A DNA stretch of 57,224 nucleotides from a virus. Its lineage: Duplodnaviria; Caudoviricetes. Positions within the stretch are counted from its first letter, which is position 1. Each line of letters opens with the position of its first letter. Positions 1 to 55,267 of this stretch are shown piece after piece. The notes under the pieces are model-generated. The model was not told where the DNA came from, ran no database searches, and saw only the letters and a program-made list of their open reading frames with translations. The DNA lies in IMG/VR virus record IMGVR_UViG_3300027365_000015, positions 1 to 57,224 of that record, one strand, 5' to 3'. Made by a program: the position numbers and the translations under genes.

Positions 1-127
1 TGATAACCGTCGAAGGGCAGAACGCCCACGGCAGCAGGAACGCTCTTTAACAATGAATAGCCCAGCCGCCCGTAGGGGATTGCATCTTCGAGAGGTCGCT
101 GGGAGCGCGGGAGCTGCGCAAGTGCCA
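1..127. repeat. Direct repeat identical to 54628-54754 (start of early-left leader)
   Basis: Base-by-base match from tgataaccgt to gcaagtgcca. Confidence 0.97.
41..53 (+). promoter_or_regulatory. nut boxA antitermination element
   Basis: CGCTCTTTAACAA matches the lambdoid/rrn boxA consensus, just downstream of the pL-like promoter seen in the other copy. Confidence 0.8.
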
Positions 128-137
128 CTTAATGCCT

Positions 138-255
138 CCGCCTGGGCTGAGAATGCAGGCGGCATCGGGATAGGCATCGCGCCTCTGAGGGTATGCAGTC
201 GAGCGAGCGGAAGGCCGCTCAAGGCCGGTTGCGGATCCGGTGTCTATCCCGATGC
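138..255 (+). ncRNA. Candidate structured RNA element 1 (GGCTGAGAAT-loop hairpin plus 15-bp closed multibranch)
   Basis: 162-176 gcatcgggataggca pairs with 241-255 tgtctatcccgatgc; inner hairpins gagcgg/ccgctc and ccgg/ccgg; upstream hairpin ccgcctg/caggcgg. Confidence 0.55.
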
Positions 256-520: not shown

Positions 521-1069
521 ATGGAAACCGCAATCGCAGAATCATGTCGCCCGAGAATCGCGAGACGGGCCACTGAAAGACTCCGCCGCTGGCGTCGTGC
601 TCGCCTTGAGCGCCGCGTTTACCGGCTGCTGGATCGACTCGAGGGCGACAGCAACATCGTCGGTCACATCCGGCGCGAGATGCCGGAAAGCGACGACGAG
701 ATGCAGAACATGATGCGGGCTCACCTGATCCGTATGGGTCAGCTATTCGCCGCTGAGGGTCACAGCGGATTTTCCGCCAGTTATGCGCTCGCCGCCTTGG
801 AGAAATTGCTTAATTTCGAGCCGCTGGGACCGCTGACAGGCGAGCCGGACGAGTGGACATGGCTCGACTATGGCGACGAGATGAAGGCCCAGAACAAGCG
901 GTGCGGCCACGTGTTCATGCGTGAGAACGGCACGGCCTACGACAGTGAAGGGCGCATATTTCGCGAGCCAGGTGGTGCGTGCTTCACCAGTAAAGGAAGC
1001 GCCGTAGACATCACCTTTCCCTACACGCCGACGCGGGAGTATGTAGACGTTCCCGCCGATCGCGACTGA
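521..1069 (+). CDS. Conserved phage hypothetical protein (GHSGFSA motif)
   Basis: GAGGAG RBS; GHSGFSA...PLGPLTG...QNKRC pattern familiar from phage early regions. Confidence 0.75.
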   Translation: METAIAESCRPRIARRATERLRRWRRARLERRVYRLLDRLEGDSNIVGHIRREMPESDDEMQNMMRAHLIRMGQLFAAEGHSGFSASYALAALEKLLNFEPLGPLTGEPDEWTWLDYGDEMKAQNKRCGHVFMRENGTAYDSEGRIFREPGGACFTSKGSAVDITFPYTPTREYVDVPADRD

Positions 1070-1209
1070 GCACACCGCAGCCCCGCTGCGCAGTGCGGAT
1101 AGCCTGCCATCGCAAGCGGTTGAGAAGGCGCGGGGACTGCGAGAGTGCCAACCATTTTGCTGGCGTTAGCAATATGGTCGCGATCCGCTGCGTAGTGCGG
1201 TAGACAGCC

Positions 1210-1455
1210 TGCCCGTTCGGCTGAGAATAGAGCGGGCATCGGAGAGGGCTGAATGCGCAGGCTGATGCGCAATCAATGACGTAGGCCAAGCATCCTGTAG
1301 TTCGCAAGATTGCAGGCTCCGCGCCGGGGACGGCGTCATATAAAACATCTTCAAGCGGCTTGGTAGGAACCATCAGAACCGTTCGCGCGCGTCATTGATG
1401 CAAAAGCCGGAGATCAGCACCGGCCAGCCCTCTCCGATGCGGCAATCACCGCATC
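1210..1455 (+). ncRNA. Candidate cloverleaf/kissing-loop structured RNA element 2
   Basis: Perfect 16-bp stem 1236-1251/1425-1440; hairpin tgcgca-ggctga-tgcgca; 10-bp stem atcaatgacg/cgtcattgat; gccgg-agatcagca-ccggc; loops GCTGAT/ATCAGC are complementary. Confidence 0.65.
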
Positions 1456-1553
1456 ACACAACCATTCACTCGATTAGATGATGAGGGGTGTGTTGTTTCT
1501 GATAGCCGGCGCTGGCAGCGGCCAATCTGCCAGCACGAATAATCCCTGCCTTG

Positions 1554-1575
1554 CCCTCTCCGGAGGGCTTTTTTC
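1554..1575 (+). terminator. Intrinsic terminator in the leader
   Basis: gccctc-tccg-gagggc followed by a T-run. Confidence 0.7.
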
Positions 1576-1666
1576 TGAGAGCACTCCCGTTGATCCAGGC
1601 CGATCCCAGCACGGCTGAGCCCCCGTGTGCGTGAGTGTTCCCAAAAACAAACAAACAGGAGGTTTT

Positions 1667-2892: not shown

Positions 2893-3687
2893 ATGTCTCA
2901 GGACAATGAACACCTAGCGCTGTGGCAGCAGGTGGAAAAGACACCAACCGATGCGGTGAAGCCAGCCAAAGTCAATGGCCAGCAGATTACGGCAATCGAC
3001 ACCATGCACATGGTCAAGCTGGCCACCAAGCTGTTCGGCCCCCAGGGAATCGGCTGGGGATATCGCATCGACGTGGACCGTTTCGACCAGGGGGCACCGG
3101 TGCTGCTCAAGGAGCAGGTCATCGGCCATGAGCAGACCCACACCTGCCAAATGACCCTCTGGTATCTATGGAACGGCGAGCGTGGCGAGGTTACCCACTT
3201 CGGCCACACCCGCGCCGTCTACATGACCAGCAAGGGGCAGTTCATCACCGACAACGAGGCGCCCAAGAAGTCGGTCACCGATGCGATGAAGAAGTGCCTG
3301 TCACAGCTCGGCTTCGCCGCTGACATATACACCGGCCTGTTCGACGACATGGGCTACCGGGCACTACGCGAAACCGAGACGCGCCTGGAAAAAGCCGAGG
3401 ACTTCGACGCCGAGCTCGAAAAGTACCGCGCCGACTATCAAGCCTGGCTCGAGCGCGAATGCGACACCCTGCGCCACAAGATCCCCCACCCCAAGAGCAT
3501 TGATCTGGCTGCCAGCACAATGCTCGAACGCATCAGTGACCGAGCCAGCATGGCACGCGTCGATCCCGCTAAGGGCATCGAGTGGATCAATAAGGCCCGC
3601 GATGAAGGCATCGAGCGCGTAAAAGCTGAGCGCGCCGCCAAACAGCAACAGCAACAGCAACAGCAGGAGGAAGCTACCCATGGATAA
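2893..3687 (+). CDS. Rad52/Sak-like single-strand annealing protein
   Basis: FGPQGIGWG and APKKSVTDAMKKCLSQLGFAADIY motifs; upstream of SSB. Confidence 0.75.
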   Translation: MSQDNEHLALWQQVEKTPTDAVKPAKVNGQQITAIDTMHMVKLATKLFGPQGIGWGYRIDVDRFDQGAPVLLKEQVIGHEQTHTCQMTLWYLWNGERGEVTHFGHTRAVYMTSKGQFITDNEAPKKSVTDAMKKCLSQLGFAADIYTGLFDDMGYRALRETETRLEKAEDFDAELEKYRADYQAWLERECDTLRHKIPHPKSIDLAASTMLERISDRASMARVDPAKGIEWINKARDEGIERVKAERAAKQQQQQQQQEEATHG

Positions 3688-4744
3688 CGCAGCCGAGAAA
3701 CAAGAAGTCGCTCAACCCTATGCCACCGAACTTGTGGAACTCAATCGCGTAGAAGCAGCCCTTGCCGAGCTGCGCGCCAAGTACGGCACGGTGCCCGATT
3801 TCACCAACAAGACAGGCTATGAGAAAGGCAAAAAGGGCATTCGGGAGCTGACTAGCTACCGCACCAGCACCGACAAGCTACGGCTGTCCATCACGGAGCC
3901 GCACCGAAAATTCATTGATCGCGTGAACAGCTACGGCAAAGACTTGATCGGCAAGATCGAAGCCATCGAGAAGCCATTGAAGGCCGCCAAGAAAGAGGTA
4001 GACGAGGCGGAAAAGCGCAAGGCTGAGGAACGCATCGCCCGGCTTCAAGAACGCCTAGCCAAGGAAGTGACCTCGTTTCTCGACACGGCCGTCGGCCTCG
4101 ACTCCAACGGCCTGGCCGACCTGATCGAGGCTGCCGAGGCCGTGGATGTAGAGGGCTACTTCGATATCACGAAGGAAGCCGAGGACGAGCGCGCCAGGGT
4201 GATTCGTGAACTGACCAACATGCACGCCGCCACTCTGGAGCGCGAGCGTCTGGCGGCAGAACAGGAAGAGCTCGAGGCCCAGCGCCGCAAGATGCAGGAG
4301 GAAGCAGAGCGCCGTGCTGCCGAGCAAAAGGAGCTTGAGGAGCTTCGCCGCTTCAAGGCCGAGCAGGAAGCCGCCAAGGCAAGCCAGGACGCCGAACGCG
4401 AGCGAATCCGCCAGGAGGAGGAAGCCAAGGCAAAGGCCGAGGCCGAGCGCAAGGCGCGCGAGGAGGGACCGGCGCCGGCCGAGAATGAGCCGGCCATCCA
4501 AAGCCACAGCCCAAGCGCGGGCGAGCCCGGCTACCGGAAGCCACTCGACACCAGCCGCATCACTCAAGCCGCCGACAACTTCAAGCGCGGTAGCGACATC
4601 GCCCGGCCGGACACGGTCGAGATCACTCGCAAGGAATACGACCGCCTGCTGGTGGCTGAGGCCAAACTCGACGCCCTCGAAGCTGCCGGCGTGGACAACT
4701 GGGCCGGCTACGACGACGCCATGGCCCATCTCGAGGCCGCCTGA
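3680..4744 (+). CDS. Coiled-coil recombination-module protein with a small C-terminal GVDNW domain
   Basis: Long E/K/R/A helical content; lies between annealase and SSB. Confidence 0.6.
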
Positions 4745-5842: not shown

Positions 5843-6031
5843 ATGACTATCACAACCACGATTCAGTGCGACGCCTTCTCCTGCAGCCGAGAGCATGAGC
5901 TTAACGACGACAGCGATGGCGCCATTGAGTCTTCAGGCTGGGTCACTGACCCGCGCTACGGGCATCAGCATTACTGCCCCAAGTGCTGGCCGAAAGTGAA
6001 GCAGGAACTGGAGGAAGACGACGATGAGTGA
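5843..6031 (+). CDS. Small Zn-binding protein
   Basis: CD..C and HYCPKC motifs; GGAG RBS. Confidence 0.65.
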   Translation: MTITTTIQCDAFSCSREHELNDDSDGAIESSGWVTDPRYGHQHYCPKCWPKVKQELEEDDDE

Positions 6032-7181
6032 CTTGAAGCCCTGCCCCTTCTGCGGCAGCGACGACACCTTCGTTGAGCGCGGAACCCTCAGCAGCTGCTT
6101 CGTCCAGTGCGACCAGTGCCAGGCGAAAGGCCCGGATACCTGCCCCGAAGACGAGCGAGATCTCGAGCTGGAAGAAGAGAACGAATGGGACCCAGGTGAG
6201 GCCGCCGCCCGCCGCCTCTGGAACCGCCGCACTCCACCAGAAGGCATGGTCATGGTGCCCCGGGAGATTACCGCCGAGACAGGCCACAAGGCGGGGATGA
6301 TCGGCGATTTCAAGGAGTCGGCTGAGGTGATGTGCTCCGAATGCGGCGCGGACGACCCGGACCCTGAGTGTGGCGAATGCGATGGGCTGTTCTTCTACCA
6401 GCAGGAGGTGACGGTCAGCTGGCCGACCCTCAAGGCGATCCATAAGCGCATCGTCGAACTATCGGAGGACCAGAATCATGAGCCAGACACACACTATCGT
6501 CGTCCGATTCCCCGAGGGGATCGTGCCGCGATACAGCGCCGCCACGGAATTCCAGGGCGGCCAGGTGGTGGCCGTGGACTTCGACGGCAATCGCCTGGCC
6601 ATCGCCCAGGAGCTGGAGGAAGTGCTGGACAAGCTGCTCCACCAGCTGAGCATCAACGACGACGAAGGGCTGTTCGAGCATGCGGACCTGGTGGTGCAGG
6701 CCCGGGATGTTCTGGAAAGAGCCGGGAGGGCGCGCCAATGAAGCTGCACAAGACAAGCCGAATCATCGGCGACGACGAGAACAATACCCGCCTGATCAAG
6801 GTGGTGGATGGCGATACAGAGGGCGCCGCCGAGGTGAAGGCCTTCGGCGAGCTGTCTGCCGAGGTGGTCGAGGGCGAGATGGCGGGACGCACCATCGAGG
6901 CCTTCGCCTGGCTGGAGAGAGCGCCCAAGGGCCACGAGATCAACGTCACCGAGAAACGCTCAGGGCTTCGCCTGGTGCGAATCCCGATCCTCACCGACCA
7001 GGGCGAATGGTTCCAGCTCGACGACGACCTGTTCAAGAAGATGCTGCCGACGCTCATGGAGGGCTGCAAGACAGCCGCCTTCCACCGCTTCCAGGAGGCC
7101 AGCGAGGAGCGCCTGGCAGAGATGTTCAAGCACATGGACAAGACGCCACCGCTGGAGCATTCAGGAAAGCTGACCGCATGA
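6024..7181 (+). CDS. Lar-family restriction-alleviation-like Zn-ribbon protein whose frame runs on into a downstream gene
   Basis: MSDLKPCPFCG...CDQC..GP...A.RLWNRR; no stop until 7181. Confidence 0.6.
   Translation: MSDLKPCPFCGSDDTFVERGTLSSCFVQCDQCQAKGPDTCPEDERDLELEEENEWDPGEAAARRLWNRRTPPEGMVMVPREITAETGHKAGMIGDFKESAEVMCSECGADDPDPECGECDGLFFYQQEVTVSWPTLKAIHKRIVELSEDQNHEPDTHYRRPIPRGDRAAIQRRHGIPGRPGGGRGLRRQSPGHRPGAGGSAGQAAPPAEHQRRRRAVRACGPGGAGPGCSGKSREGAPMKLHKTSRIIGDDENNTRLIKVVDGDTEGAAEVKAFGELSAEVVEGEMAGRTIEAFAWLERAPKGHEINVTEKRSGLRLVRIPILTDQGEWFQLDDDLFKKMLPTLMEGCKTAAFHRFQEASEERLAEMFKHMDKTPPLEHSGKLTA
6478..6741 (+). CDS. Hypothetical protein nested in an alternate frame
   Basis: GGAGG RBS; globular-looking translation, while the overlapping frame is low-complexity. 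Confidence 0.7.
   Translation: MSQTHTIVVRFPEGIVPRYSAATEFQGGQVVAVDFDGNRLAIAQELEEVLDKLLHQLSINDDEGLFEHADLVVQARDVLERAGRARQ
6738..7181 (+). CDS. Hypothetical protein (own start MKLHK)
   Basis: GGAGG RBS and ATGA coupling to 6478-6741. Confidence 0.65.
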   Translation: MKLHKTSRIIGDDENNTRLIKVVDGDTEGAAEVKAFGELSAEVVEGEMAGRTIEAFAWLERAPKGHEINVTEKRSGLRLVRIPILTDQGEWFQLDDDLFKKMLPTLMEGCKTAAFHRFQEASEERLAEMFKHMDKTPPLEHSGKLTA

Positions 7182-7242: not shown

Positions 7243-9740
7243 ATGGAGTACCGAGAATTTCTGGAAGGCAAGATCAAGCTGTCGGAGATGCACGGCTTCG
7301 GCTGCGAGCCCGACGAGATCAACCCGATACTCAAGCCTCACCAGCGTGACATCGTGCAATGGGCCGTGCGTGGCGGGAAGCGCGCCATCTTCGCCGCTTT
7401 CGGCCTGGGAAAGTCGGTCATTCAGATCGAGACGCTACGGATCCTTGGCGAGAAGCTGGGCGGAGGCAAGCTGCTGATCGTCTGCCCCTGGGCGTTCGCC
7501 AGGAGTTCAAGCGCGACGGCCGCATGCTCGATGTCGAGTTTGATTTCATCCGCACCAATGCCGAGATCGACGGTCCCGGCTTCTACCTGACCAATTACGA
7601 ATCGGTCAGGGACGGCAAACTCGATCCCAACTTGTTCGATGCGGTGAGCCTCGACGAAGCCTCGGTGCTGCGCAGCTTCGGCAGCAAGACCTACCAGACC
7701 TTCCTGACGCTGTTCGACCGGGTGCCGTTCAAGTTTGTGGCCACCGCCACGCCCTCGCCGAACCGCTATAAGGAGCTGATTCACTACGCCGGCTTCCTTG
7801 GGATCATGGATACCGGCCAGGCGCTGACCCGGTTTTTCCAGCGCGACAGCCAGAAGGCCAACAACCTCACGCTCTACAAGCACAAGGAGCGTGAGTTCTG
7901 GCTGTGGCTCAACTCCTGGTCGGTGTTCGTGCAGCGCCCATCAGACCTCGGCCACGACGACACCGGCTACGACCTGCCGCCGATGAAGGTGTTCTACCAC
8001 GAGGTGCCGGTGGACTACAGCGAGGCCGGTACCGACAACTGGGGCCAGGGCATGTTGTTCCAGGATGCAGCCCTGAGCCTTCAGGACGCCAGCCGCGAGA
8101 AGCGCGACAGCCTCGACGGCCGTGTCGCCAAGATGCGCGAGATCCTCGACGCCAATCCAGGCGACAGCTTTCTTCTTTGGCATGACCTCGAGGCCGAACG
8201 CCATGCCATTCAGAAAGCGGTACCCGAATCGAAAGCCGTCTACGGCTCGCAGGACCTGGAAGACCGCGAGCAGCGCATCATCGACTTCTCCGACGGCAAG
8301 TTCCAATACCTCAGCGCCAAGCCGGTGATCGCCGGCTCGGGCTGCAACTTCCAGCGCCATTGCCACAAGGCGATCTTTGTCGGCGTGGGGTACAAGTTCA
8401 ACGATTTCATTCAAGCCGTGCACAGGGTCTACCGCTTCCTGCAAACCGAGCAGGTGGAGATTCACATCATCTATGCCGAGAGCGAGCAGGAGATCCTGGC
8501 CGCGCTCAAGCAGAAGTGGATTCAGCACGACGACATGGTGAGCAAGATGACCGAGATCATTAAGCAGCATGGGCTGGGCAGCCTGAGCATGGCCGACATT
8601 CTGAAGCGCTCCATCGGAACCGAGCGCATCGAGGCCAGCGGCGAGCACTTCACCGTGGCCAACAACGACTGCGTGGAGGAGTGCCGGCTGATGGAGGAGA
8701 ACAGCGTGGACCTGATCCACACCTCCATCCCGTTCAGCAACCACTATGAGTACACGCCGAGCTACAACGACTTCGGCCACACCGATGACAATGACCACTT
8801 CTGGGCGCAGATGGACTTCCTCGCCCCGGAGCTTTTGCGCGTGCTCAAGCCCGGCCGCATCGCCGCGATTCACGTCAAGGACCGGATCCTGTTCGGCAAC
8901 GTCACTGGCGCCGGCGCGCCCACGGTCAGTCCCTTCCACGCCGAGTGCATCTTCCACTATCGCAAGCACGGCTTCGACTACATGGGCATGATCACGGTCG
9001 TGACCGATGTGGTGAGGGAGAACAACCAGACCTATCGCCTCGGCTGGTCCGAGCAGTGCAAGGACGGCACTAAGATGGGCGTCGGTTCGCCGGAATACAT
9101 CATCATCTTGCGCAAACCCCAGACCGATCGCTCCAAGGGCTATGCCGACGAGCGCGTCACCAAATCGAAGGAGGAGTACAGCCGGGCGCAATGGCAGGTG
9201 GACGCTCACGCCTTCTGGCGCTCAAGCGGCAACCGCATGCTCTCCCCGGAGGAGATGGCTCAGCTCGGCCCCGACCAGCTTGCCAAGATGTTCACCACCT
9301 ACAGCCTGCACAACGTCTACGACTACGAATCGCATGTGCGGATAGGCGAGGAGTTGGATAGCCGCGGAGCGCTGCCCTCGACCTTCATGAGCCTGGCCCC
9401 GGGCAGCAGCCATCCGGACGTCTGGCATGACGTGAACCGCATGCTGACCCTCAACGGCAGCCAGACGCAGCGAGGTCTTCAGAACCACGTTTGCCCGCTT
9501 CAGTTCGACATCGTGGACCGCATCATCAACCGCTATTCCAACCCAGGCGAAACGGTCTTCGATCCGTTCGGCGGATTGTTCACCGTGCCGTATCGGGCCA
9601 TCAAGCTCGGCCGCAAGGGGCGGGCCAGCGAGTTGAATCCCAGCTACTTCATGGATGGCGTGCGGTACCTCGAGGCGGCAGAGCGCGAGGTCTCGATGCC
9701 CTCCTTGTTCGACACCCTGGAAGACGAAGAAGCCGCCTAG
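7243..9740 (+). pseudogene. SNF2-like helicase / N6-N4 DNA methyltransferase fusion with a 1-nt frameshift
   Basis: GLGKS Walker A in one frame; LDEAS, TATPSPN, SIPF and FDPFGG in another; frames join if CCCC at 7485-7488 had one more C (LIVCPLGVRQEF). Confidence 0.8.
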
Positions 9741-15701: not shown

Positions 15702-18700
15702 TCATTCGATCTCGTCATAGCGACGGTTGAAGTCGTCGATCCAGCGCTGCATCTGGTTTTCAACCATCTCGGTCCGGCGGCGCCTGGCCTCATCAGAGAG
15801 CGTCTCGGTCTCCTCGATGCGGTCGCGACGCTTGCGCAGGTCGCTGAGGCGCTTCTCCAGGTCGGTCGCGCGATTGAACAGCCGAAGCTGCTGCTGGTGG
15901 TCTCGCCGGTAGTCGATTCGCTCACGGCCTCGCAGCGAATCCGCTTCATTGGCGATCTGGCCCAGCTCGTCGCGGCGCTCGTAGAAACGCTGCATATCGC
16001 CATATTCGCTGACGTCGCTCATGAAGCGGCCGGCAAACGGCACTCGGTAGCGCTCTACCTCTTCGCCGGTGGCGGTTCGCTTGGCGAAGTCCGCCGACTT
16101 CTCCACGAAGCCCCAGGCGCCGCCACCGTAATAGTTCACCAGGTGCTGCATCACGTCCGGGCTGACGTCGATTGCCCCGCTGATGTTGTCGGTACCGCCG
16201 GTGAACTCGTTGAGGAACCTCGCAAAGCCCTGATAAGCCTCGGGTGTCGAACGGAAAGAGCGGGAGCTATCGGGCGTCGGCGTGCCGAACGGGAAATCCT
16301 CGCGGTAGATCGGGCGCCCCGAGAAACTCTCGTTGACGCCGATCTGCGTAATCGAGCGAAAGATCGTCGGCGTCAGGTTCTTGAGGAACAGCGAGTGCGC
16401 CTCGTCGGAGTCTTCAAAGCCGATGGGCGAGAAGCTGCCGGCCACGGCCAGCACCAGGTTCTTGGCCGCCTCGGTGGCATCCTCGGTGCCGGCGACCACC
16501 GCCTCGGCGTGGGTGCCCACCACCGAGAAGACGTTGTAGCCGTAAGGCAGCGGGATCTTGATGTAGTCGTCGGGCTCGCCGCCCCACAGACTGCTCATGA
16601 AGATCAGGCTGCGCTCCTTCTCGTAATCCGGGATCTTGTCCCAGAACAGAGCGCCGTCTTCATCTTCTTCAGAGGCCCAGCGGTTGAGCATGCCAAGCAT
16701 GAAGGCGCCGGTGGCCATGCCCATTCCCATCTTCTGCGCCAGATTCATGCGCGCCCACACGTTCATCCGGCTCTTTCCCTCGGGGGCGTTCTTCACCGTG
16801 ACCATGGTGCGGGCGAAGTTCATGGTGCCTTGAATGGAAGCGTTGGCGAACATGTAGGCAGCGTTCAGCGCGGTCCCGGCCTCGCCGCGGCGATTGAAGT
16901 TGACCGTCATATTCTTGGCCAGGCTGGCCGCCTTCTTCCGCGAGATGCCGGCGCGCCGGGCGTTGGCGTAGGCGGAGAGGCGCACCGCATTCTCCACGGC
17001 GCCGTTCATGTTCTCCACGAAGTCGGCGGTCTTCTTGCGCGCCTTGAGCATGTGGGAGAGCGTGGTGCCGTCGGCCCGGCGAATCATCGACTGGATCTCC
17101 TTCGCCTGGGCGTTGAGGTCCTTCATATCGAAGTAGCCGGTCTTGGCGCCGTCCTCCTGGAACTCACGGAACCACTGGTCCCACTCGCGGCTGCCGTCGT
17201 TCTTGCCATCCCTGCCGGCCAGGCCGCGCCAGGCGGCGCGCATTGCCGGGCCAATGTCGCGGGCGGTCTGGCGCACGATCGCCTCGCCCTTGATCTTGCC
17301 GTCGTCGCGGGTCTGCTCGGCGCTCAGGTTGAGCAGCGCGGTCTGCACGTCACGGGCGAAGTTGGTCAGCATGAACTCGGGGTTGTAGCTGGTCACCAGT
17401 GACGACATGACGCGCGTGACGGCGCCGGCGGCGCGGACCAGGGTGTTGTTGTTCTCCGGGCCCACGTTGCGCATGGCGTTCATCAGGCGCTCGTCGTGGA
17501 TCTTGAGGTAGTAGGTCCGACCGGCGCGCTTGGCCTTGAAGTAGCGGTCGTTGCCGGCCATATTGACCGGTCGCTCCTGCACCTCGATGCGCACTTGCCC
17601 CGTCTCTGGGTCGGTGACCCGGGTCGGCGTGCGCTGGGTATCGGGGTTGTCGTCGGTGAACACCTCCCACAGCGCCGGGTTCGGGTTGTCGGTCACCAGG
17701 GAGAGCAGCGATTGCGCCACCTCATTCTTGCGCCGGCGGATCAGCGACTCGTTGACGTCCACGATCACCTGGGACGATGGCGAGTCGGCCAGCGACTTAC
17801 GGCCGGCGGCGATGCGCGACTCCCGCCCGCTGACCTCGAAGCCGCGGCCGGTGCGCGGCCGCCCCGGCTCGTCGGCGGCATTGCCCTTGAGCGGCACGTA
17901 GTACTGCCAGGCGGACTCCCAGGCATCCACCACCGCATCATCCTCGAGGCCGCCCTCGCGGATCGCCTCGCGGCGCAGTCGGGTCATGTCGTAGACAAAC
18001 TGGGACAGGCGGTCGTATTCGGCCTGCTTGCCCGAGTTGGCGACCCGCTCGATGATCTCGGCGGCCTGGGTGTTGGTCATGCCGGAGCCGCCATCCTGCA
18101 TCTCAGGGTCGTCCGGGTTGCGCTCGGCGATTGTCGCGTTGCGCTCCGGCGCGTGGCGGGCGTAGAGATAGTCGTCGAGGTCGGCCTGGCTTATCTTGGC
18201 CTTGGCCAGACCTTCTGCCAGCGGCTCGACATACTGCTCCTGCAGCTGACGCAGGTCATACTCCACCTTGCCGTGGAATAGCTCCTCGGCCAGGTAGGCG
18301 TCGGCTTCCTCCTCGATGTCGCGGCCGGTGCGGCGGATCGACTCTTCGAGGATCTTCAGCGGGCGCATCTTGTCGGCCATCTTGCGCAGCGCCGTATCCA
18401 CCAAGGACTCATCCGGCATGGCGAAGCCGGTGCTGTCCGTACTGCTGAACTTGCCGCCGACGGTGCCTGGCTGACTGGCGAGGCTGAAGCGCACCTCGCC
18501 CACGCCGCGGTCGGGCTCGCGGTACATGGCCTCGCTGATCTCGTAGTCCTTGTTGCGGCCCTTGTTCTCCACGAAGCCGAAGCGGCGATAGAACTCGCGC
18601 AGGCGCTTCACGTTGCCACCAAAGTCTCTGGACGGCGTCAACGCCAGGATGCGCCCGGAGGCGTCCGCCCAGTCGGTCAGGCGACGCATCACCGCAGAGC

Positions 18701-21700
18701 CGGTGCCCTGCTCGCGCCCCGGGGCCACGATGCGCGACAACGTCACACGCTGGTCACTCCCTGCCAGGTCGAGCTTGAGGCCGGGAAACTCCTCGCGCAG
18801 CTGGGCGGCCAGATCCTGAGGCGACAATTCAGCCTGCCGCTCGGCGAAGCTGTAGCGGTTTCCGGCATCGCTGTTATCGCGTGTGGCCTGCTGTCGGCGC
18901 AGCCAGCGACGAGCTTGGTCGCCCATGACCAGAATGTCGGCGGTTCGCCACTGGATGCCCGGGAATAGCTTGCGCAGTAGGCGGCGGATCGTGGACTTGA
19001 TGCGCTGGCTCAGCTTAGGCCGGCCGTTGCTGTCCTCGATGTAGTGGGCCACCAGCTCCTCGGCCAGGGTGATCTTGCCCTTGCGGGTGGTCACGTCGAT
19101 GAAGGGGTAGGCCTGCTGAATGTCCTCGATGTTGCGCCGCCCCGGCTCTGAGCGGGTGTGGCTCTGGTAGATCTCCATCATCAACGGCTCGAGCTCTTCG
19201 CCGAGCATTCCGCGAATGCCGTAATGACCCACGCCCTCGTGGACCGCCTTGCGCACGCCGTCAGCCTCGTCGATGAGGTTGTCGGCGACGATCATCGGTG
19301 CACCGGTATCGGGGTTGTAGACGCCGCTGACTCGCCCCCCCTCGACGCCCTGCAGGGCCATGATTAGCTGCACACCGACCGGCAGCTCCGATGCGGACTG
19401 AACCACCTCGACAACCGACAGCTCTGGGTGACCCGCCAGGCGAGCGCGGATCGCTTCGGCGCGCGGCCCTGCTGGTGATTCATCCGCAAAAGCAAACAAA
19501 GGGTCCTGACCGCGAGCGGTGGCCTGGTCGGCAGGAAGATCACTGCCGGCCAGTGCAAAGTCGTCGGCCTCACGGTCGGCGGCGGCGCGCTGCTCCTGCT
19601 CGCGCAGCTGGGTGGACTCGGCCTGTTGCGCCTGCTGGGTGGCCTGCTCACGCCTGGCAAGATCCTGCTCGGTGTAAGACTCGAGGAGCGGAGATTCGGC
19701 TACGTCCTGGGTTTCTTCAGCCCCTTCGGCAGGATCAGCTTCTCGCCGCTGGGCAGGCTCTCGTTCGCCTTCGCTAGAGCGTCCTGAAACATCGGTCTCA
19801 GGTGCTCGTTGCTCTTCTGGGTCTGCTGGGTTTTGTCTGAATCCTTCACGTATCGCGTCCTCGCTGGTGGTGCTGTCTTCGAATAGCGCGCCATTTCGGG
19901 CGGTCTCGGCGCGCCGCCGCGCATCCTGAGCCACGAAGCCAAGCGCTGCCTCTAGGCTGGCACGCGATCGCATATTGGTGTTGATCAGGATAGCCAGTTC
20001 GGCGGTGAGTTCCGATACCGGCTCGCTGAAGGCATCGGCCTGACCGATCAGCTCGCGAATAGGTGCCCCGCCGCGGCGCGAGGCGCGAACCAGGCGCACC
20101 GCCTCATTGATGGTGCTGATGATGTCGAGTGCTTCCTGATTGCCGGTCTCGCGCGCCATGGCAAGATCCGGGGCCGCGGCCTGCAGGGCGCCGGCCAGGT
20201 TTCGCATCTGGTCGCCTTGCTCGGTGACCAGCTCCACCATATCCGGCTCGGCATAGGCCTTGGCGAACAAGGCACGGCTCATGCGCTGCCCCAGCTCCGG
20301 GGCGGCCTGTCCCTGTCGGGTGGTGTAGCGCGCTGCCTCGTTGTTACCCAGTCGGCCCACGAAGGAGCGCTGGAAGTCGCGATTGCTGGCTGCTAGCGGG
20401 TCGCCGCTCTGGTCCGGGTTCCAGGCCTGGAGTTCATCAGCGGTAAGTGTGTCGGCATCAGCCATGGCCTGCTCGTAGCCGGTCATGCCGGCCACCTGGC
20501 TCTCGTTGGAACGGCGGGCAAACTCGGCGCGATCAATCTTGCTGGCTCGCTCTCGTACCAGCACTGGGCGGCGCATGCCTTCGATGTCAGCCTCGATACC
20601 ACGCTCCTGGGCCTGGCGGCGAACGAAATCGCGGTACGCCTGGGCGTGCTCGCCGCCCTCACGGTAGGCGGTGGCGATGGCCATGGTGCGCCCATTGCCA
20701 GACTCCACCACGCCATCCTTGCCGATGATCGGGGCTCCGGTACCGGCATCGGGGCTGCTGCCGAGGCGCTCGGGATTTAGCCGCGCGGCGATATTGCGCA
20801 CCTGCACCTGGCTGTTGGCGTTAGTGCGATCGCGCGGCTGCAGTTCGGTGGGGAATTGTGGATTGACCTGTCCGTCGGAGCGGTTGGATGGGGTGAGGTC
20901 GGCCAGGTCCACCACGCGGAAACGGGTTTCCACCGGGGTGTTGTCCGGCAGGTAGGCGGTTTCGCGCTGGGCCTGTGGCACGACCTCGGCTGCGCTCTGT
21001 TCTTGCTCCTGCGGCCCCACCTCTTCGGGGGAGTTCGCCGGCTCCGTAGCCCCGCTGGCGGCCTGCTGACCCATCGCGAACGGCGCGCGGGTATTGCCCT
21101 CTCGAACCCACTGACGAAAGTCGTCAATCGAGGTCTCGGCGATGTCGCCCAGCCCTTGCCAGTTCTCGTCATAGCTGGACAGGTACGCCTGCCGGGCCTC
21201 CTCGAGAGAGTCATACCCCATCAGGGTCTTGGTCTCGTCGAAGCTGCCCTCTTCGTTCACCTGGTCCACGACGAACACGCGAGACGAGGCTGGGTTGTCG
21301 CCCACAAAGACATCGAGGTTGTCACCGTCGGCACCCTCGGTGCCCTTCAGATCACCGTAATGGCCACCCATGCGATTGGCCCACTCAGTGCCGTCCGGGG
21401 CGGTGCCACGGCGTGTCGATCCCTTGGGATTCTCGATAGCGATCTCGAAGCCGTTGAGCCGAACCTTGCCCTTTCGGTAGTTGCCGGCCTCGGCCTGTGC
21501 GGGGGTTGGCTCGGTGTCGGTCTCGGCAGCGGCTCGCTCGACATCGCCCGGGGAGGGAGGAGTTTCCGACATCGCCGCGCCCTGCTCTTCCCAAGCCTGA
21601 TCCACTTCGGCAGCGGTGTAGTTGGCGTTGCGGTAAGCCATCGGGTCGGGATCGGCATCTGGGCCCTGCTCTACGGCCGCCCGCTCGTTGATTCGCCCAA

Positions 21701-23207
21701 CGGCATCGGAGAATCGCTGGGATGCAGCGCCCAGCCGCTGGCGGACCTGTTCAATGGATTCTTCGTCGCCGCGGCTGCGGGCTAGCGTCTCTTCCTCCAG
21801 CGCGGAAGACACCTCCTCGCTGACGGCATCCAGATCGGCCACGGCTTCGGTATCACCCTGCTCCTCGGCAGCGGCTCGCAGCGCCTTGAACGCATCGCCA
21901 TAAGTGATCGAGTCGCGCGCCTCACGCTCTGCGGACGACAGCTCGAAGCGCGGCCGCCGGATGAGGTCGGATGCCGCACCGACGGCTTCCTCGTTGGCCT
22001 GCAGGGCTTCTGGCGATGGCGCCTGGTTCGTATCGCTGGATTGCGATGATTTGGCCTGTGTGCTCCCGCTGCGGTTGCCAGCCGCCTCGGCGGTCGCTGT
22101 GCCCAAGCGCACGGCACCGCCGGTCGGGCCGCCAATGATGGCGCCGCCGGCAGCGCGCCGGCCAGCCGTTACCGGGTCCCAGCCCTGCTCGGTACCGACC
22201 GACTCGCCGGCATACTCGATACCGCCTTCCTGGATCGCTTCGGTGGTGGCCTCGGTGACGCCCGCGCGGCCTACGGCGCCAGGGATCTGGCTGGCCCGGG
22301 AAACGGCATTTTTGCCACCCGGGAGGATCCTGCCCAGCGCGAACCGATCCAGCAGCACGGAAGCCGCGGCGGTCGGCCCGGCAACGGCGTAATCGCGCCC
22401 TTCGGGCATGCCCTCGCGACCATCATTCCCGACGCGGGCTTCGCCGATCTCTTGCGTACGGGACGCCAGGTAGGCAGGCAGGTTGATCACCAGCCCGGCC
22501 ATGTCGGCCAGGGCGGCGGGACCCTGCTCGGCGGCGGCACCGGCGAGCGTCTCGATGCTGGGTTCGTCGAGTGCGCGATCGATGGTGTAGTTCGGCTGGT
22601 ACCCGAGCCCCACATCCTCCACAGCCTGGCCGGCAGCAGTCAGTCCGGTGTCGGTGTCCTCCGGCTTTGCGCGAGCTGTGAAGTCCAGCCCGTAGCCGCC
22701 CAGCTCGAGATCGGGCTCGTAGCCACGCGCGCGCATCGCCTCGGATTCGCCCCCGATCACCCCGGGATTAAAGCCACCCAGGTGGTCGGAGATCATCTTC
22801 TCGCCCATCTCGGCCATGTTGCCGATGAACTGCGCGGCATTGCCGGCCAGGTCGAGGCCGCGCTCACCTGCATTGCGCAGCGCATTGCTCGCCAGCCCCG
22901 GCGGCTCTGCCTCGGATTGAGCCCCCGGTATCGCCAGGCCGGTTTCATCCTGAGGCGAGCTCTGCATGGCAAAGCCGCCGCCAGTGTCACTTCCGCCGCG
23001 ATCGCCGAATACATCTGCCTCGGTCTGGGTGAAAAACTTGCCCTGCACTTCATCGAGCAGATCGGCGGGGACGTTGGGCTCCACGACACGACGGAAGAAC
23101 TCGCCGCGAACCGCTTGGCGGGTCTGCCAATCAGCGGACTGGAAGTCCTCGTCGCTGGAAATATCTGACCACTTGGGGGTGCTGTTGCGCTGGCTGGCGG
23201 CGTTCAC
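15702..23207 (-). CDS. Large polyvalent virion/ejected protein (InPase-like, DdrB-ParB-like, zincin MPTase, GNAT, LPD38-like)
   Basis: AGNYRKG..IENPKGS.R..HYG...GADGD..DVFVG; LQPRDR...GAPI..DGVVESGNGR; HEGVGH; GTGS...FYRRFGF; VNFNR.G...KIPLPYG. Confidence 0.85.
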   Translation of the reverse strand: MNAASQRNSTPKWSDISSDEDFQSADWQTRQAVRGEFFRRVVEPNVPADLLDEVQGKFFTQTEADVFGDRGGSDTGGGFAMQSSPQDETGLAIPGAQSEAEPPGLASNALRNAGERGLDLAGNAAQFIGNMAEMGEKMISDHLGGFNPGVIGGESEAMRARGYEPDLELGGYGLDFTARAKPEDTDTGLTAAGQAVEDVGLGYQPNYTIDRALDEPSIETLAGAAAEQGPAALADMAGLVINLPAYLASRTQEIGEARVGNDGREGMPEGRDYAVAGPTAAASVLLDRFALGRILPGGKNAVSRASQIPGAVGRAGVTEATTEAIQEGGIEYAGESVGTEQGWDPVTAGRRAAGGAIIGGPTGGAVRLGTATAEAAGNRSGSTQAKSSQSSDTNQAPSPEALQANEEAVGAASDLIRRPRFELSSAEREARDSITYGDAFKALRAAAEEQGDTEAVADLDAVSEEVSSALEEETLARSRGDEESIEQVRQRLGAASQRFSDAVGRINERAAVEQGPDADPDPMAYRNANYTAAEVDQAWEEQGAAMSETPPSPGDVERAAAETDTEPTPAQAEAGNYRKGKVRLNGFEIAIENPKGSTRRGTAPDGTEWANRMGGHYGDLKGTEGADGDNLDVFVGDNPASSRVFVVDQVNEEGSFDETKTLMGYDSLEEARQAYLSSYDENWQGLGDIAETSIDDFRQWVREGNTRAPFAMGQQAASGATEPANSPEEVGPQEQEQSAAEVVPQAQRETAYLPDNTPVETRFRVVDLADLTPSNRSDGQVNPQFPTELQPRDRTNANSQVQVRNIAARLNPERLGSSPDAGTGAPIIGKDGVVESGNGRTMAIATAYREGGEHAQAYRDFVRRQAQERGIEADIEGMRRPVLVRERASKIDRAEFARRSNESQVAGMTGYEQAMADADTLTADELQAWNPDQSGDPLAASNRDFQRSFVGRLGNNEAARYTTRQGQAAPELGQRMSRALFAKAYAEPDMVELVTEQGDQMRNLAGALQAAAPDLAMARETGNQEALDIISTINEAVRLVRASRRGGAPIRELIGQADAFSEPVSELTAELAILINTNMRSRASLEAALGFVAQDARRRAETARNGALFEDSTTSEDAIREGFRQNPADPEEQRAPETDVSGRSSEGEREPAQRREADPAEGAEETQDVAESPLLESYTEQDLARREQATQQAQQAESTQLREQEQRAAADREADDFALAGSDLPADQATARGQDPLFAFADESPAGPRAEAIRARLAGHPELSVVEVVQSASELPVGVQLIMALQGVEGGRVSGVYNPDTGAPMIVADNLIDEADGVRKAVHEGVGHYGIRGMLGEELEPLMMEIYQSHTRSEPGRRNIEDIQQAYPFIDVTTRKGKITLAEELVAHYIEDSNGRPKLSQRIKSTIRRLLRKLFPGIQWRTADILVMGDQARRWLRRQQATRDNSDAGNRYSFAERQAELSPQDLAAQLREEFPGLKLDLAGSDQRVTLSRIVAPGREQGTGSAVMRRLTDWADASGRILALTPSRDFGGNVKRLREFYRRFGFVENKGRNKDYEISEAMYREPDRGVGEVRFSLASQPGTVGGKFSSTDSTGFAMPDESLVDTALRKMADKMRPLKILEESIRRTGRDIEEEADAYLAEELFHGKVEYDLRQLQEQYVEPLAEGLAKAKISQADLDDYLYARHAPERNATIAERNPDDPEMQDGGSGMTNTQAAEIIERVANSGKQAEYDRLSQFVYDMTRLRREAIREGGLEDDAVVDAWESAWQYYVPLKGNAADEPGRPRTGRGFEVSGRESRIAAGRKSLADSPSSQVIVDVNESLIRRRKNEVAQSLLSLVTDNPNPALWEVFTDDNPDTQRTPTRVTDPETGQVRIEVQERPVNMAGNDRYFKAKRAGRTYYLKIHDERLMNAMRNVGPENNNTLVRAAGAVTRVMSSLVTSYNPEFMLTNFARDVQTALLNLSAEQTRDDGKIKGEAIVRQTARDIGPAMRAAWRGLAGRDGKNDGSREWDQWFREFQEDGAKTGYFDMKDLNAQAKEIQSMIRRADGTTLSHMLKARKKTADFVENMNGAVENAVRLSAYANARRAGISRKKAASLAKNMTVNFNRRGEAGTALNAAYMFANASIQGTMNFARTMVTVKNAPEGKSRMNVWARMNLAQKMGMGMATGAFMLGMLNRWASEEDEDGALFWDKIPDYEKERSLIFMSSLWGGEPDDYIKIPLPYGYNVFSVVGTHAEAVVAGTEDATEAAKNLVLAVAGSFSPIGFEDSDEAHSLFLKNLTPTIFRSITQIGVNESFSGRPIYREDFPFGTPTPDSSRSFRSTPEAYQGFARFLNEFTGGTDNISGAIDVSPDVMQHLVNYYGGGAWGFVEKSADFAKRTATGEEVERYRVPFAGRFMSDVSEYGDMQRFYERRDELGQIANEADSLRGRERIDYRRDHQQQLRLFNRATDLEKRLSDLRKRRDRIEETETLSDEARRRRTEMVENQMQRWIDDFNRRYDEIE

Positions 23208-30590: not shown

Positions 30591-31028
30591 TCAGGCCTCG
30601 ATCAGCGATGCCTGGTGAAACAGGTCATCGACCTCGGCCTCGGTCAGGCCGAGCTGGTCCGCCAGGGCGATGATGGTCGGGCTCATGCGACGGAACTCAT
30701 GGGCGTCATGCCAGGCATCGATCACCAGCGGGTCGGTAGCCGGGTCGTCCATGATGGCCTCGACCTGGCTGCGAAGCCCCGCCTGACGCAGCACGGCGCG
30801 CGCCTGAAAGCGGCTGACGACGGCGGATTCTCGCCAGTCCTTCAGTTGTTCGGCGGTCATCGGAATCTCGGGATACCCGTCGAACTCGGCGAGGGCATTG
30901 CCCTCGTCGATCCACTGCTGGACGTCGCTATAGAGCTCATTACTCACAGGAACGACGGCGCCCTTCTTCACTCGCCCGTAGTCGGCGAGGCAGACGACGC
31001 GCCCGGCAGTTTGGTCTTTGCTGAACAT
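30591..31028 (-). CDS. Tail-fibre assembly-like protein
   Basis: VSRFQAR..L...W..A.EF.R.SP...LGLT..EVDDLF. Confidence 0.7.
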   Translation of the reverse strand: MFSKDQTAGRVVCLADYGRVKKGAVVPVSNELYSDVQQWIDEGNALAEFDGYPEIPMTAEQLKDWRESAVVSRFQARAVLRQAGLRSQVEAIMDDPATDPLVIDAWHDAHEFRRMSPTIIALADQLGLTEAEVDDLFHQASLIEA

Positions 31029-32032
31029 GCGACCTCCTGGGTCAGCTGATGATGCTGCGCGGCGAGTGAGCGCAGCAGGTTGTGGGAATCGGCCCAGCGA
31101 GCATGGCCAAGCCAGGCAGCGAGGAAGAAGCGCAACGCTTGCTTGTCGCCGGCCAGGGTGTGGGCTTTGATCTTGCGTTTGGCACGGCGAACGCTGTCGC
31201 GCCTCAGCAGCTTATGGCTCGGGAATATCCTATAGCCAAGGAAGTTGACGCCGGCGCTCACCGGCGTGACCGACCACTTGCTGAAGGTCAACCCCAGGGC
31301 GTGGCGGCAGAACATCTCCAGCCAGCCGCGCAGCTCGTGGAGAAAGCCGCGGGAGCGACCCAGTATCACGATGTCGTCCATGTAGCGGGTGAAGTTAGAC
31401 ACACCCATGGTCTGCGCCAAGAAGCGGTCCACTTCGGTGCCGTAGACGTTGGCCCACAGCTGCGACGTCAGGTTGCCGATCGGCAGCCCGGTACCGGTGC
31501 GCGGCGTGAACCGCTCGATCAGCCAGGCGGTGTGCCGACAGCTAATCTTGGCGTCGATGCGCCGCCATAATGTCGGCCTGTCCACGCTGTAGAAATACTT
31601 GCTGAAGTCGGTCTTTAGGGCATAGACCGTGGCGCCATTGCGACCGAGGTGGCGCATCATCGCTTGGGTGCGAATCGCGCCACTATGCATGCCGCGCCCC
31701 TTCCTGCAGGCGTAGGCCTGGGGGAGCATGCCGGCCTCGAAGATCGGGCCGATGACGTTGCACAGCGCATGCTGGACGACGCGATCTTGAAACGGCGCGG
31801 CGGTGATCGGGCGCGGCTTGGGCTCGTAGACCCAGAACGTCCGGGGCTTGCCCGGCCGGTAGGTCTGGTCGAGGATGTCGCGCCTCAGCTTCTCCAGCCA
31901 GGCCGCCTCGTATTCCTTGAAGTTCAGATAGCCGGCGCTGCTGCGTCGGCCCCGCGCCGCCTTTTGGTAGGCGTTGCGCAGGTTGTCGGGGTCGGCGATC
32001 CTGCCGATGAGGTTCCGGTACCGCTTGCCCAA
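30968..32032 (-). CDS. DGR reverse transcriptase
   Basis: PK.R.I.A..F.DRVVQHA; GLPIGNLTSQ; RYMDD; FLGY. Confidence 0.97.
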   Translation of the reverse strand: MGKRYRNLIGRIADPDNLRNAYQKAARGRRSSAGYLNFKEYEAAWLEKLRRDILDQTYRPGKPRTFWVYEPKPRPITAAPFQDRVVQHALCNVIGPIFEAGMLPQAYACRKGRGMHSGAIRTQAMMRHLGRNGATVYALKTDFSKYFYSVDRPTLWRRIDAKISCRHTAWLIERFTPRTGTGLPIGNLTSQLWANVYGTEVDRFLAQTMGVSNFTRYMDDIVILGRSRGFLHELRGWLEMFCRHALGLTFSKWSVTPVSAGVNFLGYRIFPSHKLLRRDSVRRAKRKIKAHTLAGDKQALRFFLAAWLGHARWADSHNLLRSLAAQHHQLTQEVACSAKTKLPGASSASPTTGE

Positions 32033-32212
32033 TCCTGTTCCTTATCCGGCGTCCTGCCGGGTGCGTTGATAAAAGCCGCGCGCAGGTCTCGATATTTCAC
32101 TACGCCCTGTTTCGCGGACCGGGTCGTGTATTTCCCGAAGGAGGTAGGTGCACGGCTGACCACATTTGGTCACCCCGGGTGGCCGTGGCCATCCCGGCGG
32201 CAGGTGATTGTC

Positions 32213-32330
32213 GTCACAGACGCCGCGGGCGCCGATGTTGCTGCTGGAGTTGTCCGGCTGATTGTTCCAGTTCGAGGCGCGAGAGCCTGCGTTGGAGCCG
32301 TTGTCCCAGTTCGCGCCGAATAGCGGCGAG
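32213..32330 (-). repeat. DGR template repeat (TR)
   Basis: 118 bp, AAC-rich; differs from VR only at TR adenines. Confidence 0.97.
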
Positions 32331-48305: not shown

Positions 48306-48489
48306 CTAGTCCCGCTCATCCAGGTCCACCACGCTGAGGTCCTCGATCAGGTCCCGGCAGCCGGCACAGATGACCGTACCGTCGATGGCCAGCAGGAACT
48401 CGCGGCACTCGCACTCGGCGCACTGCCACAGCTCCTTCATCTCGGCGTCGCGCTGCCGGGACCTGATCGAGGTCGATCACGTCGGTCAT
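48306..48489 (-). pseudogene. Small Zn-ribbon gene with an apparent +1 frameshift
   Basis: MTDVIDLDQV then, one base shifted, RQRDAEMKELWQCAECECREF...ICAGC. Confidence 0.5.
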
Positions 48490-54599: not shown

Positions 54600-54628
54600 T
54601 TGACGCGCCCGAAATCAGGTTGTACATT
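54600..54628 (+). promoter_or_regulatory. pL-like promoter
   Basis: TTGACG-17-TACATT, with boxA ~40 nt downstream. Confidence 0.7.
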
Positions 54629-54813
54629 GATAACCGTCGAAGGGCAGAACGCCCACGGCAGCAGGAACGCTCTTTAACAATGAATAGCCCAGCCGCCCGT
54701 AGGGGATTGCATCTTCGAGAGGTCGCTGGGAGCGCGGGAGCTGCGCAAGTGCCAACCATTTTGCGGACGTTAGCAATATGGTCGCGATCCGCTGCGTAGT
54801 GCGGTAGACAGCC

Positions 54814-55059
54814 TGCCCGTTCGGCTGAGAATAGAGCGGGCATCGGAGAGGGCTGAATGCGCAGGCTGATGCGCAATCAATGACGTAGGCCAAGCATCCT
54901 GTAGTTCGCAAGATTGCAGGCTCCGCGCCGGGGACGGCGTCATATAAAACATCTTCAAGCGGCTTGGTAGGAACCATCAGAACCGTTCGCGCGCGTCATT
55001 GATGCAAAAGCCGGAGATCAGCACCGGCCAGCCCTCTCCGATGCGGCAATCACCGCATC
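54814..55059 (+). ncRNA. Second copy of structured RNA element 2
   Basis: Matches 1210-1455. Confidence 0.65.
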
Positions 55060-55267
55060 ACACAACCATTCACTCGATTAGATGATGAGGGGTGTGTTGT
55101 TTCTGATAGCCGGCGCTGGCAGAGGCCAATCTGCCAGCACGAATAATCCCTGCCTTGCCCTCTCCGGAGGGCTTTTTTCTGAGAGCACTCCCGTTGATCC
55201 AGGCCGATCCCAGCACGGCTGAGCCCCCGTGCGCGTGAGTGTTCCCAAAAACAAACAGGAGAGACCA

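Follow-up and report, generated by a model that had tools for sequence, protein, structure and literature searches.

In the phage DNA analysed here, positions 1070-1655 (+ strand) make up the distal stretch of an early-operon leader; this stretch is not translated and consists of conserved RNA hairpin modules. Its core (1242-1436) belongs, by a covariance-model match, to an RNA family that is widespread among phages and has the topology of transfer RNA (tRNA). The DNA, referred to as the window, is a 57,224-nucleotide (nt) linear IMG/VR virus record assembled from a subsurface metagenome, with a terminase at most ~52% identical to those of marine gammaproteobacterial phages. Hundreds of phages and no fewer than a tenth of complete Escherichia coli genomes contain the family, which is carried by phage P1, lambdoid and Stx-type prophages and phages of Klebsiella and Pseudomonas, and is missing from both Rfam and annotation. 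Its fold is unusual, combining the outline of a tRNA with a covarying Watson-Crick helix between two loops at the elbow and an open slot for the anticodon arm. To the family the window adds a nested form of the element, a boxA heading a non-coding array and direct adjacency to a Tad3-type gene.

Structure of the core element

The central structure of the region is the following.

1236-1440 (+): tRNA-shaped core, consisting of closing stem P1, hairpin HP1, an exchangeable arm (1272-1399), hairpin HP2 and a loop-loop pairing

An earlier note on this DNA had described the region as an array of cloverleaf and kissing-loop RNA elements, and the parts that it listed were all found. The closing stem P1 is a perfect helix of 16 base pairs (bp), 1236-1251 being the exact reverse complement of 1425-1440. 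It is followed by a D-arm-like hairpin (HP1, 1254-1271; 6-bp stem, loop GGCTGA), a 10-bp arm (1272-1281 with 1390-1399) enclosing ~108 nt of hairpins, and a T-arm-like hairpin (HP2, 1406-1424; 5-bp stem, loop AGATCAGCA). The loops of the two hairpins are complementary over 5 bp (GCTGA, 1261-1265, with TCAGC, 1414-1418); a sixth pair becomes possible if the closing A-T pair of HP1 opens. Competition for the ends of the closing stem, also proposed earlier, is real in the local fold, where hairpins at 1210-1238 and 1436-1455 take the outer 5 bp and leave 11 of the 16.

Region 1070-1655 folds on the + strand with z = -3.73 (0/100 shuffles as good) and the local segment 1203-1460 with z = -5.32 (0/200 shuffles as good). 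The statement that the region holds no credible open reading frame (ORF) proved correct: only a 36-amino-acid GTG ORF and a 46-amino-acid ATG ORF on the + strand and GC-rich antisense frames were identified, and no Pfam family was found for the small ORFs at 1093-1203 and 1478-1618 or for the antisense ORF at 1011-1373.

The RNA family and its distribution

The 19-nt sequence of HP2 is present exactly in at least 120 IMG/VR contigs, and the HP1 motif lies within 600 nt upstream of it in 100 of 123 occurrences among the matches listed. From these, 89 non-redundant instances were obtained, 74 of which have arms of up to 105 nt, and the 43 with the shortest arms were aligned to build a covariance model (R1). 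Over its full length, R1 matches the window at 1242-1436 and 54846-55040 (59.1 bits, E 3.9e-15), on the + strand only and nowhere else. The window core shares with the family the stem P1, an AA linker, the HP1 loop GGCUGA and the HP2 loop AGAUCAGCA abutting the 3' strand of P1, and its GCTGA/TCAGC pairing exceeds the 4 bp of loop-loop complementarity by which members were defined.

The scope of Halomonas and Pseudomonas prophages suggested in the earlier note was too narrow, as the family is also found in P1, in mEp460 and in Klebsiella, Escherichia and Pseudomonas phages. An 84-nt family instance matches 264 cultured-phage records (Klebsiella 77, Pseudomonas 61, Escherichia 54), nearly all of the matches being unannotated or lying under a 'hypothetical protein'. 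R1 matches phage P1 at 69816-69921 (60 bits), in the ban operon, 315 nt after trnT and on the same strand, and phage mEp460 at 30976-31114 (78 bits), where the match lies in the early-left leader on the strand that is transcribed. Together with its terminator, the mEp460 form was identified in 586 of 5426 complete E. coli genomes (at least 80% coverage), and was unannotated in all 12 examined among the E. coli matches listed. Labels with the prefix L denote related contigs or loci, L329 being phage P1 and L207 mEp460. The putative genes plp and upl of P1 (69472-70041, corresponding to L329 24472-25041; minus strand) overlap the + strand match and may be mis-annotations. Likewise, gp36 and gp37 of mEp460 (L207 30855-31408) are hypothetical coding sequences on the non-transcribed strand over the leader RNA element and are probably spurious.

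Among 97 instances, stem P1 is most often 7-9 bp long (57/97) and reaches at least 10 bp in 23, the window core among them. P1 stacks on the 5-bp HP2 without a linker, while a 2-nt AA linker lies ahead of HP1 in 86 of the 97. The arm ranges in length from 12 to 166 nt; one member has a mere 12-nt linker in its place, so the frame rather than the arm is probably essential. Arms are nevertheless conserved within sub-lineages, mEp460, L099 and L188 sharing an arm with a compensatory change (as judged by eye). Of 88 instances, 21 have a terminator-like site in the 150 nt downstream, compared with 9 that have one upstream.

Covariation and the loop-loop pairing

Covariation supported the closing stem, HP1 and the loop-loop pairing, the check that the earlier note had proposed. 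In the 43-sequence alignment all eight pairs of stem P1 show changes on both sides, and 95.9% of cells are paired, compared with 80.5% in shuffles (0/500 as high) and 32-47% in slid controls. Forty-two different P1 7-mers occur among the 97 instances, with at least seven of nine positions paired in 84. HP1 shows 11 G-U wobbles against three unpaired cells, an excess that favours the + strand.

Consensus loops were found in 71 of 83 model matches. Three members altered in both loops keep 4-5 bp (TGGTG/CACCA, GGTGA/TCACC and GCGA/TCGC). Single-base variants of the HP1 loop were also scanned in IMG/VR without conditioning on HP2. This gave 46 model matches in variant loci, of which the 19 with at least 39 bits were kept and, after removal of two duplicates, left 17 distinct members; the 27 weaker matches that were dropped included a 53-nt cluster without HP2 and coding-like matches. 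The 17 members are as follows.

U22>C: 7 members; 6 carry A128>G as the compensating change, each in a different HP2 hairpin context (stem and loop), 1 uncompensated
C21>U: 4 members; 2 become U-A, 2 stay as U-G
C21>A: 3 members; all uncompensated
G23>U: 3 members; all uncompensated

G128 occurs in none of 72 members with U22 (Fisher 2.5e-8, relatedness uncorrected). Since the loops change together, their complementarity is a conserved tertiary pairing, tolerant of single mismatches.

The early leader: promoter, boxA and terminator

The placing of the array in the early leader was borne out by a promoter and a boxA upstream of it and by the first early gene downstream (ATG 1667), 1070-1655 being the final 586 nt of the leader. 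Two further elements frame the array.

41-53 (+), second copy at 54668-54680: boxA CGCTCTTTAACAA, an exact 13-mer with two occurrences in the window where 0.35 would be expected
1553-1574 (+; hairpin 1553-1568), second copy at 55157-55172: intrinsic terminator, GCCCTC-TCCG-GAGGGC followed by T6

A sigma-70-like promoter (TTGACG-17-TACATT, 54600-54628) precedes a second copy of the array and points away from an opposite-strand Ant/Rha-type regulator gene and a small helix-turn-helix gene. As the 127 nt at 54628-54754 are exactly those of window positions 1-127, the window is concluded to begin just past the -10 box of an early promoter. The boxA at 41-53 lies ~33 nt downstream of the inferred transcription start, and both it and the copy at 54668-54680 are of the kind found in lambda-type nut sites. 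The terminator is typical in having a GC-rich hairpin (1553-1568) followed by TTTTTT. The order of elements is thus promoter, boxA, structured RNA, intrinsic terminator and first early gene. Within the family, 7 of 97 instances have a boxA-like GCTC[AT]TTAAC on their own strand in the 2 kb upstream, against 0/97 at each of three control positions. The part of the literature available on boxA describes it as typical of long non-coding transcripts, namely 16S ribosomal RNA and CRISPR arrays (PMC7862264).

Comparison with tRNA and other known RNAs

Compared with tRNA, the closing stem of the core takes the place of the acceptor stem, HP1 (5-6 bp) that of the D arm and the exchangeable arm that of the anticodon arm, while the 5-bp HP2 abuts the closing stem as a T arm does and the elbow is formed by pairing between the two hairpin loops. 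The core differs in having neither an anticodon loop nor a GTTC T loop, and its elbow consists of 5-6 Watson-Crick pairs. ARAGORN identified no tRNA or transfer-messenger RNA genes in the window, and the tRNA model of Rfam (RF00005) showed no match there at the gathering threshold or at E <=10.

A hit to a described Rfam family would have removed the novelty that the earlier note saw in the element; none of the 4227 models of Rfam 15 claims it (whole window, gathering threshold). On 1-1800 at E <=10 five chance-level matches were obtained, all below gathering scores (those of DicF, STnc100, IsrK, GOLLD, ROOL and others not being reached). Rfam gave nothing in ten other family loci, and in the mEp460 leader three chance-level matches below every gathering score. 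No description of the fold as a family was found in the literature searched, though it may figure in the supplements of a published catalogue of 10,006 viral RNA candidates (PMC10690425).

The closest parallels in topology are stable RNAs of phage tRNA clusters, such as RNA1 and RNA2 of phage T5, which are annotated as 'tRNA-like stable RNA with unknown functions'; species 1 and 2 of phage T4 are RNAs of the same kind. RNAs of the T5 type share with the family a four-way topology, a stem of 7-9 bp (in most members) on a 5-bp hairpin and a loop-loop elbow, and some family members lie in the same orientation beside phage tRNA genes. When T5 RNA1 and RNA2 were considered as members, R1 showed no match in their region, and the two are therefore taken as separate families.

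C4 RNA of phages P1 and P7 and CI RNA of phage P4 are embedded in leaders, are cut out by ribonuclease (RNase) P and control their own operon. The element resembles them in being a small, structured, tRNA-like RNA in the untranslated leader of a repressor-controlled operon, and could act on its own transcript. It differs from C4 in that no phage target sites complementary to the window loops or arm were found. Identity with C4 was rejected: RF01695 has no match on 1-1800 at E <=10, and R1 none to the P1 c4 gene (48343-48419). Substrates of RNase P have a 12-bp acceptor/T minihelix, a single-stranded 5' leader and a 3' RCCA; the window core has a stem P1 that can extend to 16 bp and no CCA.

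With lambda nut, rrn boxA and HK022 put the leader shares a perfect boxA near an early promoter, structured RNA next to it and a terminator before the early genes. It differs from lambda nut in that no boxB-like GNRA-type pentaloop lies at the usual distance, the loop of the Y hairpin (described below) being of 11 nt, and from both nut and put in that the core family occurs mostly outside leaders. No N-like family was identified among 12 window ORFs scanned, N proteins being too divergent for this to exclude one.

The engineered tRNA scaffold for recombinant RNA, reportedly the work of Ponchon and Dardel, offers a further likeness, since a conserved tRNA-like frame bears arbitrary inserts (12-166 nt here) in the place of the anticodon arm. 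The phage family differs in being natural and in having a frame that is not a real tRNA; the existence of a near-insertless member suggests that the frame itself matters. The family could serve as a natural scaffold for RNA display.

The mEp460 element and sRNA-17

As far as the available part of the report goes, sRNA-17 of E. coli K1 RS218 is a 193-nt small RNA (sRNA) mapped by rapid amplification of cDNA ends and northern blot to an mEp460-type prophage, with no Rfam homologue and an origin from a mobile element (Sun et al. 2020, PMC7719688). The same part treats it as a base-pairing sRNA under ArcA control and describes neither a tRNA-like fold nor a family beyond the enterobacteria (PMC7719688). 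In mEp460, a single strong R1 match lies in the early-left leader on the transcribed strand, and the distance from the first base of stem P1 (31112) to the end of the T run of the next terminator (30920) is exactly 193 nt. Judged by length, the mEp460 family member is very probably sRNA-17. Among the genes most increased in the sRNA-17 deletion, according to Table 1 of that report, are yfdP and yfdR (PMC7719688), relatives of which are located just downstream in the mEp460 early-left operon; their rise fits a cis effect of removing the leader terminator. The mEp460 element differs from that of the window in its closing stem (8 bp vs 16 bp), its unrelated arm and the lack of a Y hairpin cassette.

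Possible function

We give about an even chance to the reading that the untranslated leader is protected by boxA and gives rise to a stable RNA that mimics tRNA and acts in trans. The repressor-side early promoter would fire, and boxA would recruit Nus factors that protect the 0.6-1.6 kb, largely untranslated transcript from Rho. The hairpin modules would fold during transcription, and many transcripts would stop at 1553-1574, giving a compact, nuclease-resistant RNA comparable to the 193-nt sRNA-17, while read-through transcripts would continue into the early genes. The tRNA-like core, not the exchangeable arm, would be the working part; as a mimic of tRNA or a scaffold, it would act in trans on some host factor able to recognise the shape of tRNA. 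In the form found in a relative, 1237-1270, 1406-1435, 1436-1602 and 1664-1891 are covered by RNA-library contigs. These reveal no transcript ends or strand and may derive from DNA, so that they are not taken as proof of expression, and the uncovered parts carry no weight either. From the earlier proposal of a processed tRNA-mimic small-RNA system, the conserved tRNA-shaped structure of the + strand with its elbow pairing stands; the processing, immunity, decoy and put-like parts are inference only.

Several observations weigh against this trans-acting reading. The - strand of 1070-1655 folds equally well (z = -3.74), so folding energy cannot pick the strand. In stem P1 the wobbles (12 G-U) hardly outnumber A-C mismatches (9), and among the 17 single-base loop variants 7 lack a compensating change (C21>A 3, G23>U 3, U22>C 1). 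A same-strand tRNA gene lies within 500 nt in just 7 of 60 loci, the adjacent ones never being on the opposite strand, and NCCA follows the 7-nt 3' strand in just 11 of 97 instances, against 1-7 at other offsets. A 16-bp stem P1 without a free 5' leader should hinder cleavage by RNase P. Antisense targets of the arm within the phage are not above chance (12 ten-mers vs 15 expected; host targets not covered). Cover by marine metatranscriptome contigs is confined to the leader of an L056-like relative, and could stem from carried-over DNA. Finally, the equation of sRNA-17 with the R1 match rests on the match in length.

Control of elongation or termination of the early operon in cis is a possible but rather improbable alternative, in which the RNA would be a nut- or put-like antiterminator or an attenuator with alternative pairings between the Y hairpin, the outer pairs of stem P1 and the 3' hairpin. 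It would account for the order of promoter, boxA, structured RNA, terminator and first early gene, for the hairpins that overlap both ends of P1 and for a terminator after the cassette in L022, L038, L081 and L178 as well (by eye); the lack of a detected N-like gene among the leader ORFs also agrees with it. However, the core also occurs far from promoters and leaders (mid ban operon of P1 after tRNA genes; beside tRNA clusters), 90 of 97 instances have no boxA upstream, and the cassette showed no complementarity to the stem of the terminator. A further point against this explanation is that HK022 put, which modifies RNA polymerase in cis, has two simple stem-loops beside the promoter and needs no boxA.

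It is doubtful that the modules serve chiefly as RNA processing punctuation, with sites for RNase III, RNase P or RNase E at which the polycistronic early transcript is cut into separately stable mRNAs and protective hairpins are left beside anti-defence cassettes, like the RNase III sites of the T7 early region. A perfect 16-bp stem stacked on a 5-bp hairpin would suit such a role, as would the position of the cassettes between cistrons, where the closure ends ~12 nt before a conserved ribosome-binding site (RBS) (244-254; L056 3370-3381), and the 5' end of sRNA-17 would coincide with the first base of stem P1. An RNase III site, on the other hand, has no need of near-invariant loops or a covarying loop-loop pairing, and many members stand alone and carry a terminator of their own. 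A DNA-level explanation, in which the repeated blocks are recombination linkers for the swapping of accessory genes and the hairpins are incidental, is very improbable: it would fit the 1023-nt Tad3 insert between repeats of block X (see below), with an insert-free form elsewhere, the identical intergenic RBS linkers that join unrelated genes in the window and L056, and the many different inserts at 1270-1406 in environmental DNA, but the stems covary and make use of G-U pairs, which on the opposite strand would read A-C, the loop-loop pairing covaries and the orientation always follows transcription and neighbouring tRNA genes. Covariation thus argues against a DNA-level feature as the sole explanation.

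For the trans-acting tRNA mimic, a more specific role is conceivable that we consider unlikely at present. The core would be an RNA device for counter-defence or host takeover, a non-decoding tRNA mimic made first from anti-defence islands after infection or induction. Its target would be a host factor that detects the shape of tRNA, such as a tRNA-cleaving immune nuclease or RNase P, which it would occupy or mislead; the arm, being exchangeable, would adjust specificity or bring additional cargo. Once known, the function of the family would account for the 'empty' stretch that recurs in the early operons of phages and could reveal an RNA-level layer of host takeover or counter-defence.

The gene that directly precedes the array is of the anti-defence type.

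521-1069 (+): Tad3-like (anti-Thoeris) gene, Pfam PF25185, E 4.1e-33, 114 bits, residues 44-158

This gene lies within a 1023-nt insert (121-1143) that is absent from the second copy. Among the products of the early genes downstream (3680-4744, 6024-7181 and 7359-9740, +) are a DNA methylase and domains of the Lar restriction-alleviation type and of a RecBCD inhibitor like T7 gp5.9. With the Tad3 homologue before it and these genes after it, the array heads an anti-defence early region. The Tad3-like ORF carries an arginine-rich N-terminal extension of 43 residues before the domain of Tad3, a type I Thoeris inhibitor.

The second copy of the array

54732-55257 (+): second array copy, 98% identity; core at 54846-55040, R1 59.1 bits

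The earlier note had reported a near-identical block in a second early operon, with two of its four differences strengthening predicted pairs. Four differences were indeed found over 510 nt between 1144-1653 and 54748-55257 (1161, 1163, 1519 and 1628), two of them with this effect: C1519A would add an A-U pair to hairpin 1511-1534, and T1628C turns G-U into G-C in hairpin 1609-1628. T1161G breaks a pair, and the differences are not evidence of selection; four are too few to test covariation or selection. The second 'operon' may, moreover, be no separate locus but a population variant of the first, given the exact 127-nt repeat of the record start, an insert-free leader elsewhere and the linear metagenome assembly. 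The insert-free form, in which 120 is joined to 1144, was identified in a contig of another metagenome. The 127-nt repeat ties the record start to a point 2.6 kb before the record end, after which the copies diverge by the 1023-nt insert; from the pair 1-127 / 54628-54754, two population variants seem to have been assembled in circular or concatemeric form.

Flanking modules

In the window and ~10 related contigs, a cassette encloses the core or other cargo. It consists of a Y hairpin (loop GGCUGAGAAUR), a CAUCGG...CCGAUG closure and a competing 3' hairpin, and in the window it follows a perfect boxA and lies 113 nt upstream of the intrinsic terminator. The modules around the core, in order of position, are listed below.

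138-254 (+): upstream paralogous cassette, with Y hairpin 138-162 (loop GGCTGAGAATG) and a CATCGG...CCGATG closing stem (163-173 with 244-254)
1078-1150 (+): conserved block X (..ATCGCAAGCGG..GCGCGGGGACTGCGAGAGTGCCA), with blastn matches in L003, L038, L056 and L020
1151-1178 (+): hairpin W, 11-bp stem with one mismatch; the between-copy differences 1161 and 1163 lie here
1210-1238 (+): Y hairpin, 7-9 bp stem, 11-nt loop GGCTGAGAATA (1219-1229)
1436-1455 (+): 3' hairpin GATGCGG/CCGCATC, sharing 5 nt with the 3' strand of stem P1 in the local fold
~1456-1506 and 1511-1534 (+): two further predicted hairpins; position 1519 differs between the copies
1579-1640 (+): post-terminator hairpin, inner loop GGCTGAG (1613-1619); position 1628 differs between the copies

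The upstream cassette at 138-254 holds a different cargo with no tRNA-shaped core and ends 12 nt before the RBS of ORF 275-487; R1 has no match there, and it is thus not a member of the family. Block X is repeated at 78-127, the two copies flanking the 1023-nt insert. A relative of hairpin W in L034 keeps the stem through changed pairs (by eye). In an alignment of 11 Y hairpins (A3), six of the seven pairs show compensatory changes, with seven U-G wobbles; the loop GGCTGAGAATR was part of the search pattern, so its conservation is conditioned. The inner 8 bp of the CATCGG...CCGATG closure differ across nine cassettes and are paired in all, several as G-U. Hairpins of the form GATGC..GCATC likewise follow the closure, and often overlap it, in L003, L038, L020, L022 and L081 (by eye). 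A search for further relatives of the 3' block found L056 as its sole close relative, and the hairpins at 1456-1640, the terminator excepted, therefore stay predictions without covariation support. The post-terminator hairpin is followed by an RBS (1657-1662) and the ATG at 1667.

No match among cultured phages was found by blastn with 1070-1655 or 1180-1262, and these modules are thus considered lineage-specific, without a cultured relative. A search of GTDB genomes with the Y-hairpin pattern gave at least 120 matches, all of which were due to chance among the matches listed after a stem check. GGCTGA occurs in the loops of four leader hairpins (145-150 and 1219-1224 in the two Y hairpins; 1260-1265 in HP1; 1613-1618 in the post-terminator hairpin), all of which could pair with the HP2 loop. 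A second tRNA-shaped frame was observed at L056 3196-3381, its arm carrying a tRNA T-arm-like GGTTCGATTCC, with similar segments in L105, L203 and L020; ARAGORN identified no tRNA at L056 3196-3381.

Other features of the window

A diversity-generating retroelement RNA (Rfam RF03022, 84 bits) was identified at 32075-32200 (-). Beside it lies a 131-nt repeat pair (32200-32330 / 32728-32858) with 85% identity, presumably the template and variable repeats. A single ORF of 2501 amino acids occupies 15702-23207 (-).

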